IMG/VR virus record: IMGVR_UViG_2869924733_000011
Span: 1 to 22,174 of that record
Direction: 5' to 3' (one strand)
Length of the DNA: 22,174 nucleotides
From: a virus
Lineage: Duplodnaviria; Heunggongvirae; Uroviricota; Caudoviricetes
Shown: piece after piece, positions 8,752 through 18,948 of the stretch
Numbering within the stretch: position 1 is the first letter of the stretch
Layout of the letters: each line of letters begins with the position of its first letter
Notes under the pieces: generated by a model
The model's input: the letters and a program-made list of their open reading frames with translations, nothing else
Databases searched by the model: none
Told to the model about the DNA's origin: nothing
Program-made: the position numbers and the translations under genes

Positions 8752-9351
8752 TCAGAACTTATAACCGACACCCACGATGAAACCGTCAGTGCGCCAGTCA
8801 CCACTGCCGGAGCCTTCATAAGCAATATCAATGGCCACGGATTCGGTCGGGTTAAACTGCACGCCAGCCCCCCACGCCAGAGACGTGTTGCTGTGGCGAC
8901 CGTCATCACTTCCGGTCAGCACATCGTGCGTTTTCCCCTTGTTGTCAGTTACGCGGATATAATCTCCGGAGAAAGTCGAAACACGGCTGTAAGCCATACC
9001 CGCCATCGCATACGCGCTGAACCATTCATTCACGCGCACAGACGGCCCCGCCATCACGCTGAACCAGCGGTTACGCACGGAATCTTCATGCCAGCGGGTA
9101 TCGCTGTAACGGGTAAGCTGGCGATTCTTGTCTCCTGCATAGCTGAATGACGTCACCAGCCCCAGTGTGTCCGTAAACTCATAACGGTATTTCACGTTAA
9201 TCCCGTTCAGATCATCACTGCCGGGAACGTTCGTCGAGGCATGAAGATACCCCGCGCTCAGCGTGGCCTGCTGCTCAGACGCCCATGCAGGCGCACCGGA
9301 TACGGCCAGACAGATGGCTGCGGACAAAATGGCTGCACAAACTTTACGCAT
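8752..9351 (-). CDS. lom: Lom outer membrane protein (Ail/Lom family)
   Basis: 199-aa ORF with signal peptide [24 protein letters not shown] and body near-identical to lambda Lom as recalled; GAGGT Shine-Dalgarno. Confidence 0.95.
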
Positions 9352-9374
9352 AATTACCTCTCGCTTTTCTGCAA

Positions 9375-9399
9375 TAAAAAAGGCGCCATTTCTGGCGCC
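9375..9399 (-). terminator. Hairpin plus T-run between the J remnant and lom
   Basis: Stem ggcgcca/tggcgcc (9382-9399) followed on the minus strand by TTTTTT. Confidence 0.3.
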
Positions 9400-9420
9400 C
9401 GTATATGGGTTATAAATATT

Positions 9421-10309
9421 TCAACGAATACTGATACCGGAAGCCGCTTTTTTGGTCACAATCACCGTACAATCGGTGATATTCCCTGCCCCCTGATTGC
9501 CTTTCTGGAAAATCTTAAACTCCAGAGTGACGCTTCCCCTGCCACTCGGCATATCAATAACCGCACTGTAACTACCGGGAATGGCCCCTTTAGTTTCTCT
9601 GGATGCGATTAATACGCCGTTTTTGCGAACTTCAAAACCATAACCCGTGTATCGCGTGCCTCCGGGGTTATTTCCGCTCCCCGGATTGTCATACGCTATA
9701 CCGTTAAAGATAATGGGCGGAATAATGATTTGACGGTCAAAGTTATGATCATCGCTGATGGTGACTGTAACCGTCCCGTCTGGTGTTTCCGTGTTACCCC
9801 ACGTACCAGCCTTTTTCGGGAATGATTTGGATACTGTTTTAACAAAATCACCTCTGACCTGATTCGCCTCCAGCATGCCCTTAATCGTACAGTTTTCATT
9901 TATCGTGACGTTGTTGAGCGTCCCGGAGTTCGCATTCACACTGCCACTGATATCCGCATTTTTAGCGGTCAGCTTTCCGTCCGGTGTCAGGGAAAATACC
10001 GGTGGATTTCCACCACTGGTAATGGTGGGGGCCGTCAGGCGTTTGAGGCACACGTCGTTCATGAATATCTGGTTACCCTGCGCCACAAACATCGGCGTTT
10101 CATTCCCGTTTGCCGGGTCAATAAACGCGATACGGTTAGCGGCAACCAGAAACTGGCTCAGTTTGCCTTCCTCCGTGTCCTCCATGCTGAGGCCAATACC
10201 CGCGACATAATGTTTGCCGTCTTTGGTCTGCTCAATTTTGACGCCCCACATGGCATTCCACTTATCACTGGCGTCCTTCCACTCTTTCGAAAACTCCTCC
10301 AGTCTGCTG
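9421..10309 (-). pseudogene. J: Tail tip / host specificity protein J, C-terminal segment (distal to the IS4 insertion)
   Basis: Translation from [82 protein letters not shown] tracks the lambda J C-terminal region. The track ORF's first ~70 aa are read-through into the IS4 terminus, not J. Confidence 0.9.
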
Positions 10310-11735
10310 TAATGCCAGTCAGTTAAGCAACTGACTGGCTCTTTTTCGGGGCTGTGGGGTATTTCCAGGGCCTCTCCTTTACCACTCTCGGGAAGGCCCT
10401 TTCCCTTCTCGTCGGTAATTTCACAAGTTGTCCCATACTTGCAAGATCGCGCATCAGCTCCGGTATACGTCCCGGTGAAACGCCCTGCAATGTCATCAGC
10501 ATTCTCATCACCATTCCGCATGATTCTGAGAAACTCAGTTGATTCGGCCAGTAACCTTTCAGATGTTCCGCCATTTTAATCATCTGATATCTCACCAGAT
10601 TATAAGCCAGTAAGACACCCCACAGCTCTTGCTCCACAAGCTCCGGCTTTTTACTTCTCAGCGTCAGCCTGCTCAGTTGCATCGTCTGTTTTATCTCCCT
10701 GTATCCCAGTTCGATTTCCCAGCGATGACTGTACAGATCCGCCATTTCTCCTCCGGGGAAGCGCATGGCGTCCGTCATCGACGTCAGCAGATGGCAGACT
10801 TTTCCTTTGCGCGTCACGGTCAGCAGGCGGGCTGTCACTTCATTTCCCAGTCCCGGCCACTTTTTTCGTGCCTGCGGGCTGGTTTTCAGCTTCACCAGAT
10901 GATCGCCTTTACCCAGTTTTCTGAGCTCTTCATATTGCGCTCCCTTTCTGAGAGGTATCATCCAGTGGCGGTGTTCTCCCGCCAGGCTCCAGGCATTTAA
11001 CAGTCCCAGTGAGTAATAACCTTTATCCATTAACGTCAGAGTGTTATCGCCGGTTTGTTCTATAAGTTGCTCAGCAAGCTCATTTTCGCTGTTCTTCATC
11101 GTGCCGAAGGCTGCAGCCGTCAGCAGATGGCTGGTCAGTTCCATCTGGCAGACCATTTTGACCTGCGGGTAGAGCGCCGGGTTCCCGGCATGTGTCTGGC
11201 GGGGGAAGGCTGCATCGTTCTCTGGTGTATCCGGTGTGCGCCAGAACACACCATCGATGGCCAGCAGGGTCAGGCCGCACCAGTGCGGATGCGGCGTGGC
11301 GTTATGCCAGAGCTGCGCTGTTTTCGTGAACACGCGGCGGACAGCCTCACTTCCCAGGCGCTGGCGGGCCTGAATAACGGCACTGGGGGCAACGAAGGGG
11401 CGATTGCCCGGCAGCATGATGTCCAGGCGATTCACAATCTGGTGAAGAGGTTCTTTACGCTCAAGCGCCATGCCAACAATACACCAGACCATCATTTCGA
11501 GGGGAAGACGGCGCTTGCGTAGCGTTACAGTACCTGATTCGGCAAGGCAACGAGAGATGAGTTCGGGGTCGAGGTAATCCCCCAGAGAAGTCAGTGGGTT
11601 ACGCAGAGAATCGTAACGGGATACCAGATCAAGAGCCTGTCCAATGTGCATAAAAAAATCCGGAAACAAGTGAGCGTTTCCGGATTCTTACACAGCCACT
11701 GGATCGGTCAACTGATCCTTAACTGATCGGCATTA
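10310..11735 (-). mobile_element. IS4, complete 1426-bp copy with 13-bp target-site duplication, inserted in J
   Basis: Termini TAATGCC... at 10310 and ...GGCATTA at 11735; identical 13-bp direct repeat ctccagtctgctg at 10297-10309 and 11736-11748; contains a full transposase. Confidence 0.9.
10323..11651 (-). CDS. insG: IS4 transposase (DDE)
   Basis: [36 protein letters not shown]...[13 protein letters not shown] matches IS4 InsG as recalled. The track ORF adds 6 spurious codons upstream of the true start at 11651. Confidence 0.9.
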
Positions 11736-12317
11736 CTCCAGTCTGCTGGCGTTATCTTCCGTCCGCTCGACTTTTTCCAGCAGTTCCTTGCCGAGATGCG
11801 TTTTATTGATCAACCCTTTATAAAAATTCAGATAACCTTCCGCATCATCGCTCGCCCGACCGATGGCCTCCACAAATGCCAATTTGCCAACGGTGTTCAC
11901 ACTGCGAACGTAAAAATAATAATCATGGCCCGGCCTGATATTGATACTGGCGGCTATCCAGTACAGCGCCGTGCCAAGATAGCGGGCTGTGGTTTCAACC
12001 TGCCTGATATCCGCAATCCGCTTTTCCGAGAACCAGAACTCAAACTGTACCGTCGGATCATAAACGGCAAGATGCGGCGTGGCGGTTATCTGAAAATACC
12101 CCGGCGTCAGCTCAATCCGCGACGGTGCTGCCGGTGCGGCAATCCGGAACGATACCGATGCCGGATCGCCCTGCTGTCCCCACGCATTTACCGCCCGGAC
12201 CGTCAGCGTGTAACGCCCCAGCGCCAGTTGCCTGAAGCGGTATGTGGTTTCCGTCGTCCGGGCCGTGCTGACCAGCCGCTCACTGCCGTCATCCGCTGCC
12301 ACGGTCAGGCGAAGCAT
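11736..12317 (-). pseudogene. J: J internal segment (proximal to the IS4 insertion), 5'-truncated
   Basis: ...[61 protein letters not shown]...TEDNASRLE matches the lambda J mid-region and joins in frame across the IS4 duplication to EFSKEW. Upstream J sequence is replaced near 12320-12345 by the IS110-family element. Confidence 0.85.
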
Positions 12318-12352
12318 AAAGCTCCCGTTACTTTATTCGTACCCCTTATAAT

Positions 12353-12552
12353 GGGGTGTTAGCCAGCCAGACCCGGCATGATTACTGCCCCCAGTCGTCC
12401 ATGATCCGGGGGTGATGTCACCGGGTCTGGTGGGGCGCTGGTAACCGCTAATAGGGGTCAGGTCAGGCACTTTTGCCGGGACCGTCTGTAACGTGGATGC
12501 CGGTACCTGCTCCCCGTGGTTATCTGGTTAACCCATATACAAGGGAGACAGA
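12353..12552 (+). ncRNA. Candidate IS110-family bridge (guide) RNA in the 5' non-coding leader
   Basis: IS110-group elements encode a structured bridge RNA in the leader upstream of the recombinase. This leader is GC-rich with several inverted repeats (e.g. ccgggggtgatgtcaccgggtctgg) and contains TAATAGGGGTCA (12451-12462) echoing the right-end sequence TAATAGGGGCA (13764-13774). No structure was computed. Confidence 0.35.
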
Positions 12553-13749
12553 ATGACCGAATCCAGCGATTACGAATCCGTCCAGGTCTTTATCGGCGTT
12601 GATGTCGGTAAAGATACGCATCACGCTGTTGCCATTAATCGTTCAGGTAAACGCCTGTTCGATAAAGCATTACCCAACGACGAAAACAAACTCAGGTCGC
12701 TAATATCTGACCTGAAACAACATGGTCAGATACTGCTGGTTGTTGATCAGCCAGCTACCATCGGTGCGTTACCTGTCGCCGTTGCCCGCTCAGAAGGAGT
12801 CCTTGTCGGATACCTCCCTGGACTGGCCATGCGCCGCATAGCCGACTTACACGCCGGTGAAGCTAAAACTGATGCTCGTGACGCTGCCATCATTGCCGAA
12901 GCTGCCCGTACCCTGCCTCACGCGCTACGCACGCTGAAACTGGCTGACGAGCAAATCGCCGAACTCTCCATGCTCTGCGGCTTCGATGATGATCTTGCCG
13001 CACAGACAACGCAGGCCAGCAACCGTATCCGCGGCCTTCTGACCCAGATACATCCGGCACTGGAGCGCGTTCTCGGTCCGAGACTTGAGCACCCGGCGGT
13101 ACTCGATCTTCTCCAGCGATATCCCTCACCAGAAAAACTCGCTTCGCTGGGTGAGAAGAAGCTGGCAGCCCAGCTCTGCAAACTTGCGCCTCGTCTGGGT
13201 AAACGCCTTGCAGCAGACATAGCTCAGGCACTGGCCGAACAAACCGTCGTCGTTCCCGGCACGAATGCCGCTGCCGTAGTACTGCCACGTCTGGCACTCC
13301 AGCTCATCACGCTGCGTAAGCAAAGAGACGAGGTGGCGCTTGAGGTAGAACAGCGAGTTCTTGCTCACCCTCTTTACCCGGTCCTGACCAGTATGCCCGG
13401 AGTCGGTGTCAGGACCGCAGCCAGACTCCTCACCGAGGTCGCCTGCCGCGCCTTCGCCTCTGCCGCACATCTCGCTGCTTATGCTGGCCTTGCGCCGGTA
13501 ACTCGGCGATCCGGCTCGTCAATACGCGGTGAGCATCCCTCGCGACGGGGTAATAAAGCTCTCAAACGGGCGTTGTTCCTGTCGGCCTTCGCCGCGCTCA
13601 GGGATCCGCTCTCCAGGGCTTACTACACCCGCAAAATGAGTCAGGGAAAACGACACAATCAGGCGCTTATCGCCCTGGCGAGACGACGCTGCGACGTTCT
13701 GTTCGCCATGATGCGCGACGGGACTTTTTATACCCCGCAGGGGTCATAA
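12553..13749 (+). CDS. IS110-family transposase/recombinase (DEDD RuvC-like plus Transposase_20 C-terminal domain)
   Basis: 398-aa ORF with GGGAGA Shine-Dalgarno; N-terminal [15 protein letters not shown] and C-terminal [16 protein letters not shown]...[10 protein letters not shown] motifs are typical of IS110-family enzymes. Confidence 0.9.
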
Positions 13750-13774
13750 CATGCTTGACAACTTAATAGGGGCA

Positions 13775-14765
13775 CGTTACGATTCTCTGCGTAACCCACT
13801 GACTTCTCTGGGGGATTACCTCGACCCCGAACTCATCTCTCGTTGCCTTGCCGAATCAGGTACTGTAACGCTACGCAAGCGCCGTCTTCCCCTCGAAATG
13901 ATGGTCTGGTGTATTGTTGGCATGGCGCTTGAGCGTAAAGAACCTCTTCACCAGATTGTGAATCGCCTGGACATCATGCTGCCGGGCAATCGCCCCTTCG
14001 TTGCCCCCAGTGCCGTTATTCAGGCCCGCCAGCGCCTGGGAAGTGAGGCTGTCCGCCGCGTGTTCACGAAAACAGCGCAGCTCTGGCATAACGCCACGCC
14101 GCATCCGCACTGGTGCGGCCTGACCCTGCTGGCCATCGATGGTGTGTTCTGGCGCACACCGGATACACCAGAGAACGATGCAGCCTTCCCCCGCCAGACA
14201 CATGCCGGGAACCCGGCGCTCTACCCGCAGGTCAAAATGGTCTGCCAGATGGAACTGACCAGCCATCTGCTGACGGCTGCAGCCTTCGGCACGATGAAGA
14301 ACAGCGAAAATGAGCTTGCTGAGCAACTTATAGAACAAACCGGCGATAACACTCTGACGTTAATGGATAAAGGTTATTACTCACTGGGACTGTTAAATGC
14401 CTGGAGCCTGGCGGGAGAACACCGCCACTGGATGATACCTCTCAGAAAGGGAGCGCAATATGAAGAGCTCAGAAAACTGGGTAAAGGCGATCATCTGGTG
14501 AAGCTGAAAACCAGCCCGCAGGCACGAAAAAAGTGGCCGGGACTGGGAAATGAAGTGACAGCCCGCCTGCTGACCGTGACGCGCAAAGGAAAAGTCTGCC
14601 ATCTGCTGACGTCGATGACGGACGCCATGCGCTTCCCCGGAGGAGAAATGGCGGATCTGTACAGTCATCGCTGGGAAATCGAACTGGGATACAGGGAGAT
14701 AAAACAGACGATGCAACTGAGCAAGCTGACGCTGAGAAGTAAAAAGCCGGAGCTTGTGGAGCAAG
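13775..14765 (+). mobile_element. Partial IS4 copy (internal ~1 kb), inverted relative to the intact copy; transposase truncated at both ends
   Basis: Translation from YDSLRNPLT... to ...KKPELVEQ is near-identical to the IS4 transposase (R/K difference at LSRLTL/LSKLTL). The first ~125 bp are replaced by the IS110-family element and the last ~300 bp by IS911. Track ORF 13751..14812 is a chimera with both neighbours. Confidence 0.85.
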
Positions 14766-14808
14766 TGAGGTGTACTGGCAATAGCGGACACTACCATTTG
14801 TTCTTTTT

Positions 14809-15627
14809 TTAAGCAGCCATCTGATGATATTTTTCCCTGAAGGCTGCCGGGGAGATATTCCCCAGACGAGAGTGACGACGCTGACGATTGTAGAAAATCT
14901 CAATGTATTCCCGTATTACTGAGATGGCTTCATCCCGGTTATTAAAACGATAGTGGCTCAGGCTCTCATTTTTCAGCGTTCCCCAGAAGCTTTCCATCGG
15001 AGCGTTGTCGTAACAGTTACCTTTACGCGACATTGATGTTTTCAGACCAGACTGCTCCTGTATGACCCGGTAATCGTATGCGCAGTACTGTGAACCTCGA
15101 TCAGAGTGGTGGATTAGCCCGGCAGGTGGGCGCTGGCTCCTGAGCGCCATAAACAGGGCTTTACCTGTCAGCTCTTTTGTCATGCGCTCTCCCATGGCGT
15201 AGCCGACAATTTCGCACGTATAAACATCTTTGATGCCAGCGAGGTACAACCATCCCTCCTGTGTGGCAACATACGTCAGGTCCGCCACCCAGACCTGATT
15301 TGGTGCTGTAGGAGCGAACGTCTGGTTCAACAGATTTGGCGCAACTGGCAGATTGTGGTTCGGGTTCGTAGTCGCTCTGAACTTGCGTTTCTGCTTACAG
15401 CGTAGCCTTAGCTCCTTACGAAGACGTGCCAGTCGGTCACGACCAACGATGATGCCATTCTCTGCCAGCTCCGTCTGGAGCCGCCGGGTTCCATATGTTT
15501 CGCGAGTGCGGATATGTGCCACCTTAATCTCCAGTTTTAGCCGCTCATCACTTTGTTTTCTGTCTGAGGGTTCATGCTGTACCCAGTTGTAATAACCGCT
15601 CCTGGATACACCAAATACCTGACACAT
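14809..15627 (-). CDS. IS911 OrfB (DDE integrase-like catalytic domain); normally expressed as an OrfAB frameshift fusion
   Basis: 272-aa ORF with the IS3-family DDE region (…WVADLTYV…HHSDRGSQY…). Its natural upstream frameshift partner is severed by IS30. Confidence 0.85.
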
Positions 15628-15711
15628 CGCTTCAATGGGAAATTGTTGTCGCCATTGTTCGATTAACGCGTATTTTTCAGCGACTCCTGTGCAAAATACG
15701 CTGTTGTAGAT

Positions 15712-16464
15712 TCAATCTGTCAATGCAACACCCCTTTCAATTATCTCTTTCGGTGTTTTGAACTTCAGTGTCTTTCTCGGTCTGTTGTTTAGCTGAGCAG
15801 CAACCAGATCTAGTTCATGTTGAGTATATTGGGCAAGACATGTCTTTTTAGGAAAGTACTGCCGAATTAGCCCATTTGTGTTCTCATTTGTTCCCCGCTG
15901 CCAAGGACTCTGAGGATCGCAGAAGTAAACTTTAACGCCGGTGCTGACAGTAAATTCTAGATGTCTGGCCAGTTCCATTCCTCTGTCCCATGTCAGTGAT
16001 TTTCTGAGTTCTGACGGTAAACTCAGGAATTTGTCGGTAAGAGCCTGATTTACTGAGACAGAATCTTTGCCCCTGAGTCTAAGGATGATCGTATAACGTG
16101 ATTTTCGGTCTACAAGTGTGGCTATATGAGAGTTTTTTGTACCTGAGACTAAATCGCCCTCCCAATGCCCCAGAGAGCGTCTGTTATCGATATTTCGGGA
16201 ACGTTCGTGAATTGGTGTTCCGTTCACTATGTTAATCGTACCTCTTTCGCCTTTGCGGGTATGACGCCTGCCATGGCGAAGGCTATGCGACCGTCGCAGA
16301 TGCTGTATATTCAGGTGGTGTAGCGCTTCACGGCTACGAAAGTACAGCGTTTTATAAATTGTCTCAGGTGATATTCGCAGCGTTTTTTGACGTGGTTTTG
16401 TTCGCCTTAACCATCCTGATATTTGCTCTGGAGACCATTTCATCTCCAGCTTTTCCAGAAGAAC
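15712..16464 (-). pseudogene. IS30 transposase, C-terminal part
   Basis: VVLLEKLEMKWSPEQISGWLRRTKP...KTPKEIIERGVALTD matches IS30 transposase; the track ORF's first 20 aa are read-through from the IS91-family element. Confidence 0.85.
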
Positions 16465-18149
16465 CACGGCAGCCTGACGGCTGCAAATTGAAAACCGCCC
16501 CTGTTCGTCCTGTTGTTGCCGCACGCTCCGCAGAATATGTATGCTCTGAGGACCTGTTTTATTAAGGACTCATCCTCTTATGTTGACCCGCAAAAGTATA
16601 GATACCGTTCTGCTCTCTGTTGGTGCTGAGAAGCTCTCACAACGTGAATGGGACTGGATGAAGATGCTCAAACCCATGGACCCACCACCTGCGATGGTCG
16701 CGGCCTCCATCCTGGAGCGCCGTGGCGACACAGCAGCCCTTACCCGGCTACAGGATACCGGGGGTTAATCCGTCCTCATGTTGTCCGCTTTTACTCCCCG
16801 CCCGCTGAAACGTCTGTTCACGGCCAACCAGTGCTGGACATCCTTCCTGGATGCGGGCGGTCTGCGCGATATCGAGGTTGAGGCTGTCACAAAAATGCTG
16901 GCCTGCGGCACGCGGATACTGGGCGTGAAGGAATACAACTGCGATAAACCTGAGTGCCCCCACGTCAGATACGTCACTAACTCATGCGGCAGCCGTGCCT
17001 GCCCGTCCTGCGGAAAAAAGGCCACAGACCTGTGGATAGCGACACAGCTGAATCGTCTTCCTGACTGCGACTGGGTACACCTGGTCTTCACCCTGCCGGA
17101 CACGCTGTGGCCGGTGTTCGAAAGCAACCGGTGGCTGCTGAATGACGTGTGCCGTCTGGCGGTGGAGAATCTGCTGTATGCCGCCCGGAAACGGGGGCAG
17201 GAACCCGGTATCTTCTGCGCCATCCACACGTATGGCCGTCGTCTCAACTGGCATCCGCATGTACATGTGTCTGTAACCTGTGGAGGTCTGAATAAGCATG
17301 GTCAGTGGAAAAAGCTGAGCTTCCTGAAAGACGCGATGCGTTCACGGTGGATGTGGAATATGCGGCAGCTGCTTCTGAAAGCGTGGTCAGAGGGGCTGGC
17401 GATGCCGGAGTCGTTGTCACATATCACGACGGAATCACAGTGGAGAAGCCTGGTGCTGAAAGCCGGAGGAAAATACTGGCATGTGTACATGTCGAAAAAA
17501 ACGGCCGGCGGGAGGAATACGGCGCGCTACCTGGGTCGTTATCTGAAGAAGCCGCCGATAGCGGCCTCCCGGCTGGCACATTACAACGGAGGGGCGAGCC
17601 TGAGCTTCCGTTACCTGGACCACAAAACGGGAGAAACGGCGACGGAAACGCTGACACAGCGTGAGCTGGTCGCGAGGCTGAAACAGCACATCCCGGAGAA
17701 GTTTTTTAAGATGGTGAGGTACTTCGGGTTCCTTGCCAACCGGGTGTGTGGAGAGAAGCTGCCGCAGGTGTACCGTGCTCTGGGGATGGATAAACCGGCA
17801 CCGGTGGCGAAGGTGTGCTATGCACAAATGGTGAAGCAGTTCCTGAGTCGTGACCCGTTTGAATGCGTGCTGTGTGGCGGCCGGATGGTATACCGCCGGG
17901 CCATCGCGGGACTGAATGTGGAGGGGCTGAAGAAAAACGCGCGGGATATCAGTCTGCTGAGGTATATGCCGGCCTGACACAGGCTAAGTGTGCCCGGGAA
18001 TCGGTGCAAGTATAAAAAACAGCCTGTTACTGTATAAAAACCGACCATGCAGAGAGAGAAAACACAGGAGTGACAGGGAAAATGGAGAGGTGCACGTGGC
18101 ATAAGGCGCGGACAGGGGTATCGCTTAGTTTTTCAATTTCCTATACGTC
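16465..18149 (+). mobile_element. IS91-family (rolling-circle, HUH) insertion sequence, ~1685 bp, possibly intact
   Basis: Replaces IS30 sequence between ...CGAAAGCTT and GTTCTTCTGG... (minus-strand view), with no target duplication and a GTTC tetranucleotide at one junction, consistent with IS91-family insertion. Contains a 399-aa transposase and a 62-aa upstream ORF (16580..16768). Confidence 0.7.
16778..17977 (+). CDS. IS91-family transposase (HUH-Y2 with N-terminal zinc-binding motif)
   Basis: CGSRACPSCGKK cysteine motif, HUH-like HPHVHVSV, and tyrosine-containing YLGRYLKK motif. Confidence 0.85.
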   Translation: MLSAFTPRPLKRLFTANQCWTSFLDAGGLRDIEVEAVTKMLACGTRILGVKEYNCDKPECPHVRYVTNSCGSRACPSCGKKATDLWIATQLNRLPDCDWVHLVFTLPDTLWPVFESNRWLLNDVCRLAVENLLYAARKRGQEPGIFCAIHTYGRRLNWHPHVHVSVTCGGLNKHGQWKKLSFLKDAMRSRWMWNMRQLLLKAWSEGLAMPESLSHITTESQWRSLVLKAGGKYWHVYMSKKTAGGRNTARYLGRYLKKPPIAASRLAHYNGGASLSFRYLDHKTGETATETLTQRELVARLKQHIPEKFFKMVRYFGFLANRVCGEKLPQVYRALGMDKPAPVAKVCYAQMVKQFLSRDPFECVLCGGRMVYRRAIAGLNVEGLKKNARDISLLRYMPA

Positions 18150-18551
18150 AAGCTTTCGCAATGGTAAATTTTGATCCAGTAAGCACGGTTTTGGCCTTTT
18201 CGCCATTCTGTTGGCTCGGTTATTAGCATCAACAGCTTTGTAATAGCGTCTGCCCCGATTACGCTGAACTTCACGTGAGATCGTCGAAGGACTGCGATTC
18301 AGCGCAGTAGCTATCGCACGAATGCTCATTTTGGCTGACAAACCAGCTCGTATCTCCTCGCGCTCAGACAGTGTCAGGTGAGCTACAGCCCGCTTACGCT
18401 CATGGGGTTTTATGCCGCCAGTATCCCTTAACATAGTGAAGATCGTTCCGGGTTTTGAACCCAGGATATTCGCTATTTCACTGAAGCCTGTTCCGTTCTT
18501 CCATAGTTCAAAAACAGAGGCTTTTTCCTCTGCTGTAAATGTTCGTCTCAT
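18150..18551 (-). pseudogene. IS30 transposase, N-terminal part
   Basis: [36 protein letters not shown]...NLPLRKL matches the IS30 transposase N-terminal HTH region; terminates 2 codons into the IS91-family insert. Confidence 0.85.
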
Positions 18552-18613
18552 TCAAAAAACCTCCGCAACCCCATGTTTTCACATAACTGTTGCGTTGACC
18601 AATTGAATCTACA

Positions 18614-18876
18614 GTAGCCTTTTTTAATATTTCATTCTCCATTTCAATGCGTTGTAGCTTTTTCCTCAGCTTACGTATTTCGATTTGTTCTGGTGTTATC
18701 GGAGAGGCTTTTGGTGTTTTGCCCTGACGCTCATCACGCAGTTGTTTGACCCATCTTGTCATTGTGGAAAGGCCAACATCCATAGCTTTGGCGGCATCTG
18801 CCACCGTGTATTTCTGGTCAACAACCAGTTGAGCGGATTCGCGTTTAAACTCTGCGCTAAAATTTCTTTTTTTCAT
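18614..18876 (-). pseudogene. IS911 OrfA, interrupted by IS30 just 3' of the A-AAA-AAG slippery site
   Basis: [45 protein letters not shown]...ENEILKKAT ends at the IS30 terminus. The remaining OrfA codons (AYFAQESLKNTR*) resume at 15704 after the 2-bp duplication. Confidence 0.8.
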
Positions 18877-18948
18877 TGGAGCACCTGTGTTGTTCTGAGG
18901 TGAGCATATCACCTCTGTTCAGGTGGCCAAATTCAGTGTGCCACTTCA

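Follow-up and report, generated by a model that had tools for sequence, protein, structure and literature searches.

How an IS91-family element, IS30 and parts of IS3-family elements came to lie inside one another is the question raised by positions 14766-18948 of IMG/VR virus record IMGVR_UViG_2869924733_000011. The whole stretch of this record that was analysed (22,174 nt, positions 1 to 22,174) is referred to as the window. The initial annotation read the interval as a three-level nest, with an IS91-family element inside IS30 and IS30 inside IS911. We compared it with reference insertion sequences (IS) taken from annotated records, namely IS30A, IS30D, IS911A, IS911B, the IS600 fragment and IS4 of Escherichia coli K-12, and the full IS911 and IS600 of pINV from enteroinvasive E. 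coli (EIEC). Read along the minus strand, the interval opens with the 5' arm of IS911 (nt 1-335, 18948 to 18614), 335/335 identical to a full IS911 annotated by PGAP. It continues with the 5' part of IS30 (nt 1-465, 18613 to 18149; 100% identical to K-12 IS30A), the tip of the left inverted repeat (IRL) being at 18613. An IS1294-type element of the IS91 family (1688 bp) occupies 16461-18148 on the plus strand, its ends set by uninterrupted IS30 and by independent copies. IS30 then resumes on the minus strand (nt 466-1221, 16460 to 15705; 99.6-99.7% identical to K-12 IS30A and IS30D) up to the tip of its right inverted repeat (IRR) at 15705. The interval closes with the 3' arm of IS600 (nt 326-1264, 15704 to 14766, minus strand), 936/939 nt (99.7%) identical to the PGAP-annotated IS600 of EIEC pINV. 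Overlaps of 2-3 nt at two junctions in the BLAST alignments are chance matches. The outer coordinates held up against the reference termini: 14766 is an IS3-family right end (TGAGGTG... on the plus strand) and 18948 is the IS911 left end. Of the three proposed levels the two inner ones are real, but the outermost is an IS911/IS600 chimera and not an interrupted IS911. The interval is very probably a pile of four known insertion sequences that records two real insertions and one exchange. All component elements, as well as the IS911/IS30/IS600 arrangements of K-12, are already annotated, and a new mechanism is not called for.

Judged by sequence, the outer layer is a chimera of the form IS911'-IS30-'IS600, its arms joined across IS30. 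The right arm (18614-18948) was 100% identical to IS911 and only 56% identical to IS600 nt 1-327, whereas the left arm (14766-15704) showed 99.7% identity to IS600 and only 56% to IS911 nt 336-1250. The IS911 arm, 98.8% identical to IS911B of K-12, has the IRL (tip 18948), orfA and the A6G frameshift signal. The IS600 arm has the right inverted repeat (tip 14766) and the orfB frame, an open reading frame (ORF) of 272 amino acids (aa) at 14809-15627 that matched the NCBIfam IS3 family transposase with 334 bits. The same arm in E. coli is independently labelled 'IS3-like element IS600 family transposase' by PGAP. The interval lacks the 5' 325 nt of IS600, with orfA and the left inverted repeat, which makes the IS600 piece a fragment and not an element. 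No IS911 3' part was detected anywhere in the window, neither IS911 orfB nor its IRR lying beyond IS30. A 3-bp direct repeat around the whole interval is also absent (TTA versus CTT). Thus, the proposed splitting of IS911 by IS30 is not borne out.

The IS911 slippery heptamer AAAAAAG (18619-18625, minus strand) lies 5 nt from the IS30 IRL tip at 18613. The initial annotation was correct in placing the IS30 terminus just 3' of this heptamer, but not in having it separate IS911 OrfA from IS911 OrfB, since the far side is IS600. The IS911 junction reads ...ATTAAAAAAGGCT-AC| and the IS600 junction |AC-AGCGTATTTT...; both fall in the homologous codon Thr88 (AC), 5 nt past the slippery A6-7G run of each element. 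That the outer layers are ancient is not demonstrated: full copies elsewhere match the arms at 99.7-100% identity, and this chimera could form more than once.

IS30 itself is complete, with all 1221 nt accounted for between 15705 and 18613 at 99.6-100% identity to K-12 IS30. It has the terminal inverted repeats and the frame of the 383-aa DDE transposase, which is broken by the insert in codon 135 of 383, after IS30 nt 465. The N-terminal helix-turn-helix (HTH) piece persists as a 136-aa ORF (18141-18551, minus strand) that stops 2 codons into the inner element. The catalytic DDE piece (15705-16460, minus strand) forms a 270-aa ORF matching NF033563 (IS30 family transposase, 251 bits). Because the insert separates the DNA-binding from the catalytic part, IS30 is inactivated. 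Both sides of IS30 are bordered by GT (AC on the minus strand; 15703-04 and 18614-15), which had been taken for a 2-bp AC duplication in IS911. AC is indeed present on both sides, but the two copies lie in two different elements and not in one IS911, and each parental composite has its own AC duplication. AC recurs here because IS30 occupies the homologous position in IS911 and IS600.

The inner element is delimited unambiguously by the bordering bases of IS30, nt 466 mapping to 16460 and nt 465 to 18149. Native, uninterrupted IS30 reads ...TTTTCCAGAA|CAAGCTTTCG..., so that the foreign DNA is exactly 16461-18148, with zero bases duplicated or lost; this base-level alignment corrects the earlier size of 1685 bp to 1688 bp. 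On the left (terIS) side the terminal sequence is GAACCACGGCAGCC... and on the right (oriIS) side ...TTTTTCAATTTCCTATACGT, without a target duplication. The oriIS-side end abuts the tetranucleotide CAAG, which is part of IS30 (18149-18152, plus strand; native IS30 ...TTCCAGAA|CAAGCTTT...), and the native ...CCAGAA|CAAGC... is interrupted cleanly. Independent copies elsewhere gave both ends at loci L002, L011 and L013, the left end at L003 and the right end at L008. The left terminus GAACCACGG... was common to the window, L002, L003, L011 and L013, and the right terminus ...TTTCCTATACGT to the window, L002, L008, L011 and L013; in all copies examined the termini (GAACCACGG... and ...CCTATACGT) had the same position. 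The 3' flanks were CAAG (window, L008), GAAC (L011, L013) or GGAC (L002), and none showed a duplication. Absence of a target duplication and an end abutting such a tetranucleotide are known behaviour of the IS91 family. The IS1294-type element entered IS30 by this usual mode, its oriIS-side end being placed 5' of CAAG.

As the initial annotation had stated, the transposase of the element that splits IS30 is itself uninterrupted, and it is the only one in the interval to be so. Its gene (16778-17977, plus strand) encodes a 399-aa HUH/Y2 transposase with an N-terminal zinc-binding domain, which matched NF033538 (IS91 family) with 311.9 bits (cut-off 125) over model positions 7-355 of 356. The identical product carries the Pfam domains Zn_Tnp_IS91 and Y2_Tnp, and the motifs comprise a zinc-binding CDKPEC...CPSC (aa 55-78), an HUH-type HPHVHV (aa 159) and a two-tyrosine YLGRY (aa 251). 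This exact protein is labelled 'MULTISPECIES ... [Shigella]'. No other element in the interval has both an intact transposase gene and both ends, and the inner element would be the only one able to move by itself. In practice it may more likely serve as a portable patch of homology through which other IS1294 copies can recombine with it.

Upstream of the transposase gene, a conserved 62-aa ORF (16580-16768, plus strand) is annotated as a 189-nt hypothetical coding sequence in every copy examined. Its 90% cluster in UniProt has 355 members; the 15 listed are all from Enterobacteriaceae, some of them named 'IS1294 transposase', and an NCBIfam search with the ORF gave no match. Subterminal inverted repeats lie at 16485-94/18130-39 and 16498-507/18109-18. 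The whole element was 99.2% identical to a truncated copy on EIEC pINV and 93.7% identical to the common E. coli plasmid variant. Copies of the element on pINV, including S. flexneri pINV, are named IS1294 and measure ~1689 bp (PMC5629016). 'IS1294-type' thus appears to be a safe name, based on the identity to the EIEC pINV copy, literature usage and the UniProt labels. The element resembles IS1294 of Shigella pINV and E. coli plasmids in its termini, size class (1688 versus 1689 bp), two ORFs and CAAG/GAAC rule, but is chromosomal and differs by 6.3% from the common plasmid variant (WP_000948429.1 type).

The same IS30 site has been used more than once. The 136-aa product that spans the junction was seen on only four of the contigs read, two Shigella-type chromosomes and two plasmid contigs. 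The only plasmid contig that reaches into the insert (L008; 10404-10530) has another IS1294 variant at the same IS30 site, nt 465/466. This variant differs from the window insert at 106/1688 nt (6.3%), differences that include both termini and rule out one shared event for the Shigella and E. coli-plasmid insertions. Since the inserts differ at 106 nt yet share the IS30 site, two variants hit the same site independently. The matching left junction of the second variant was found at L013 (4101-5788), where a deletion appears to have removed what lay between two IS1294 copies. On a sister plasmid (L002; 3908-5595), the second variant lies at IS30 nt 325/326.

Composites of IS30 with either IS3-family element exist in other genomes. 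True IS911::IS30 composites, in which IS911 resumes at nt 334, were found in prophage CP4-6 of K-12 (L005) and at L016, L018, L019, L021 and L022; true IS600::IS30 composites were found at L010 and L016. The chimera was present in the window, at L020 (the sister-genome copy of the window locus), at L017 in a different prophage, and in the leuX island (L001, L014, L015, L023), next to tRNA-Leu and a tyrosine-recombinase pseudogene. Positions 5751-22174 of the window agree fully (100%) with NCBI CP027027.1, a chromosome of 5.04 Mb (assembly GCA_002943855.1), and a sister chromosome, CP026824.1, matches at 99.9%. IS911::IS30, IS600::IS30 and the chimera all coexist in CP026824.1. This chromosome (L016-L019) has at least three IS911::IS30, one IS600::IS30 and two chimeras at different loci, and one IS911::IS30 interrupts a DUF2491 gene, with TAA duplicated. 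Either its composites were mobilised in trans as units, or many IS911 copies were hit separately by IS30. We also looked for the composite with and without the inner element. The chimera without insert was found elsewhere, but the window locus without insert was not: a search through junction-spanning proteins gave no copy with uninterrupted IS30, only CP027027.1 and CP026824.1 carrying the locus, both with the insert.

Across 5426 complete E. coli genomes, at least 80% of the 2495-bp unit that remains when the inner element is removed was found in 990, mostly in the IS600::IS30 pattern. A probe specific for the chimera (IS911'-IS30-'IS600) detected 24/5426. The reciprocal chimera (IS600 nt 1-327, IS30, then IS911 from nt 334 onward) was present in 48/5426, for example in NZ_CP095816.1 (3547310-3549257). 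A contiguous IS911/IS600 hybrid free of IS30 was found in 0/5426; the 6 matches at 80% coverage or more were two separate pieces spread over 1 kb. The simple composites keep their 3-bp duplications (TAA at L019, CTT at L016, GTC at L010), and these are absent from the chimeras at all three loci compared.

Two K-12 arrangements and one other E. coli locus are close relatives of the interval. A K-12 IS911::IS30 composite, mentioned in the initial annotation, does exist as IS911A::IS30A in CP4-6 (insN/insI1), and K-12 IS911 has been described as interrupted by IS30A (PMC9333248). It shares the IS911(nt 335)|IS30-IRL junction, the relative orientation and AC on both sides with the window. In CP4-6, however, the far side of IS30 is IS911 nt 334-762, making it a true split IS911; moreover, its IS911A arm is only 90% identical to the window arm, and its IS30 contains no IS1294. 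In the KpLE2 arrangement IS911B/IS30D/IS600/IS911B-1 (insO, insI3, insM), IS30 likewise bridges IS911 and IS600 arms with the same break past the slippery run. There, IS600 contributes its 5' arm (nt 1-327) and IS911B runs opposite to IS30, whereas the window combines the IS911 5' arm with the IS600 3' arm, all co-oriented. The leuX-island chimera (e.g. in E. coli MS 21-1) is the same 2495-bp unit, with 99.8% identity after in-silico removal of the inner element. It differs from the window in its flanks (tyrosine recombinase pseudogene and hypothetical gene) and in that its IS30 is uninterrupted.

We sampled the IRL flanks of IS30 on one-genome-per-species contigs as well as at the above loci. 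The flank ATTAAAAAA(A)G.. recurred in IS911 (also in Kluyvera), in a 90% identical IS911 variant, in IS600 and in an IS3-family element of Serratia whose OrfA has 35% identity to either IS911 or IS600 OrfA. In every one of these elements the flank stops after OrfA residue 87. At L025 in E. albertii, the IS911 site is occupied by IS30 in inverted orientation. IS30 at this same codon was seen in Serratia marcescens (L030), Kluyvera (L024, L034), E. albertii (L025) and K-12 (L004, L005), comprising four IS3-family elements and both orientations. At least three independent insertions at one codon are required, and the placement of IS30 next to the heptamer therefore reflects target choice rather than chance. 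A preference of IS30 for nearly palindromic hot spots, with duplication of 2 bp, is documented (PMC9333248). These results suggest that IS30 has a hot spot in the frameshift window of IS3-family elements. A broader proposal, to which we give somewhat less than an even chance, is that ATTAAAAAA(A)G plus 5 nt constitutes a conserved, sequence-specified landing pad, at which IS30 would decapitate IS3-family transposases and leave OrfA regulators behind. The resulting IS3::IS30 composites would then be portable 1.2-kb homology cassettes for arm swapping that drive deletions and inversions. More speculatively, the truncated OrfA and the IS30 N-terminal HTH products might damp transposition of intact copies in trans.

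How was the chimera made? Most likely by an exchange across IS30 copies sitting in the IS30 hot spot. IS30 would have used the IS3-family frameshift window as a hot spot, giving rise to IS911::IS30 and IS600::IS30 composites, and the chimera would stem from an exchange across IS30 between two of these. Such an exchange might have come about by homologous recombination inside the 1.2-kb IS30 or by an intramolecular deletion that IS30 targeted to the hot spot. By either route the DNA lying between the composites would be lost, in this case probably a portion of the gutted prophage in which the interval lies. The presence of the parents and of both chimeras, together with the lack of an IS30-free hybrid and of 3-bp repeats, is the pattern predicted by exchange across IS30. 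The simple three-level nest, one IS911 hit by IS30 and then by the IS91-family element, would account for AC on both sides of IS30 and for IS911 nt 1-335 in the right arm, and the true IS911A::IS30A at the same position in K-12 CP4-6 gives it a precedent. It is nevertheless scarcely credible, given the IS600 identity of the left arm (99.7%, against 56% to IS911), the lack of IS911 3' sequence in the window, the missing 3-bp duplication around the interval and its unrelated flanks. Hardly better are the prospects of IS30 having entered a pre-existing IS911/IS600 hybrid, or of the 2.5-kb chimera having moved as a unit by means of the IS911 IRL and the IS600 IRR, both of which we consider very improbable. 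The outer ends of the chimera are intact and it occurs at several loci (window, L017, leuX island); yet no contiguous hybrid without IS30 was found in the 5426 genomes, which rejects the pre-existing hybrid for E. coli, and the ends come from elements only 56% identical. Unit transposition is rejected on the basis of the missing 3-bp repeats at the three chimera loci.

More serious is the possibility that the IS30 transposase itself made the chimera, an active IS911::IS30 junction having targeted the corresponding hot spot of an IS600 close by and deleted the DNA between them. Hot-spot targeting is reported to produce deletions and inversions whose starting point is exactly an IR tip (PMC9333248). 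The K-12 KpLE2 arrangement of IS600(1-327), IS30D and inverted IS911B(335-1) fits such a hot-spot-to-hot-spot rearrangement, and in plasmid and Serratia copies that have an IS3-family arm, the DNA joined to it on the IRR side is unrelated. On the other hand, finding both parents in the sister genome and both reciprocal chimeras in E. coli is what simple homologous exchange between IS30 copies predicts, and we regard the transposase route as possible but rather unlikely. Homologous exchange and IS30-catalysed deletion would have the same product, which sequence cannot distinguish. Several observations weigh against an exchange across hot-spot IS30 copies. A comparison of six IS30 copies yielded 9 variable sites, too few for a recombination tract to be visible, and the exchange is not directly seen. 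Since no copy of the locus with uninterrupted IS30 was found, the order 'chimera first, IS1294 second' follows only from the logic of nesting. In addition, the palindromic symmetry of the IS30 sites is only moderate (6/11 in IS911, 7/11 in IS600 and 8/11 in the chimera). Ranked by symmetry, the IS911 site is exceeded by 10 of 1227 IS911 positions and the IS600 site is tied for top, which lends slight support to the hot spot.

The window is a gutted lambdoid prophage on a Shigella-type chromosome. A search of a plasmid collection with the whole window returned only scattered IS, ipaH and tail-fibre matches; the window is therefore chromosomal, and an origin from pINV is ruled out. The prophage remnant comprises an ipaH-type NEL E3-ligase effector gene with leucine-rich repeat and NEL domains (2189-3832) and the segments 4012-12317 and 19158-22174, with tail fibres, lom, J, a few early-region ORFs and an integrase gene (20888-22174). 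In CP027027.1 the integrase gene adjoins mlrA, which is located just past the window end. Everything between J and the early-left region is missing from the remnant, and the IS pile lies exactly at that gap. The ORFs at 5316-5999 and 6561-8693 both start with a prophage tail-fibre N-terminal domain, the shorter one (227 aa) resembling a truncated duplicate of the 710-aa tail fibre.

The two flanks of the interval are unrelated, the left one being the interior of an IS4 and the right one prophage early genes. The left flank, outside the nest, consists of IS4 nt 118-1108 (13775-14765, plus strand; 99.5% identical to K-12 IS4) and ends at the IS600 right end with the junction ...GTGGAGCAAG|TGAGGTG. 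Nucleotides 1-117 and 1109-1426 of this second IS4 are absent; lacking both ends, it is a fragment between two other insertion sequences. Since the left flank is a cut IS4, the interval is not a simple insertion. A complete IS4 (10310-11735; 1426 bp, 99.6% identical to K-12 IS4) lies inside the phage tail-tip gene J, where a 13-bp direct repeat CTCCAGTCTGCTG (10297-10309 and 11736-11748) marks it as a clean simple insertion, unlike its neighbours. An IS110-family element (~12320-13774) with an intact 398-aa transposase ORF (12553-13749; NCBIfam 'IS110 family RNA-guided transposase') is bordered directly by IS4 nt 118 and, at its other end, by a truncated J gene.

In conclusion, the proper label for the left arm of the interval is IS600 rather than IS911, and deductions on insertion order or age should not take the unit for a simple nested insertion. 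Modestly interesting by-products are the reciprocal arm-swapped chimeras and the finding that IS1294 variants have entered one IS30 site more than once. That IS30 is found again and again at the IS3-family frameshift window bears on its target choice, a modest point but a testable one. The locus illustrates the erosion of Shigella-type genomes: an ipaH-carrying lambdoid prophage has lost its core here, and the loss is bounded by truncated insertion sequences with junctions that lack target duplications. IS1294 copies have been reported to mediate reversible plasmid integration and loss of the virulence island (PMC5629016), and the intact copy described here is a potential recombination partner for the IS1294 copies of pINV and of the chromosome. 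If IS3::IS30 composites do act as arm-swapping cassettes, they would allow arm swaps between unrelated IS3-family members, as well as deletions and inversions, in IS-rich genomes such as those of Shigella.

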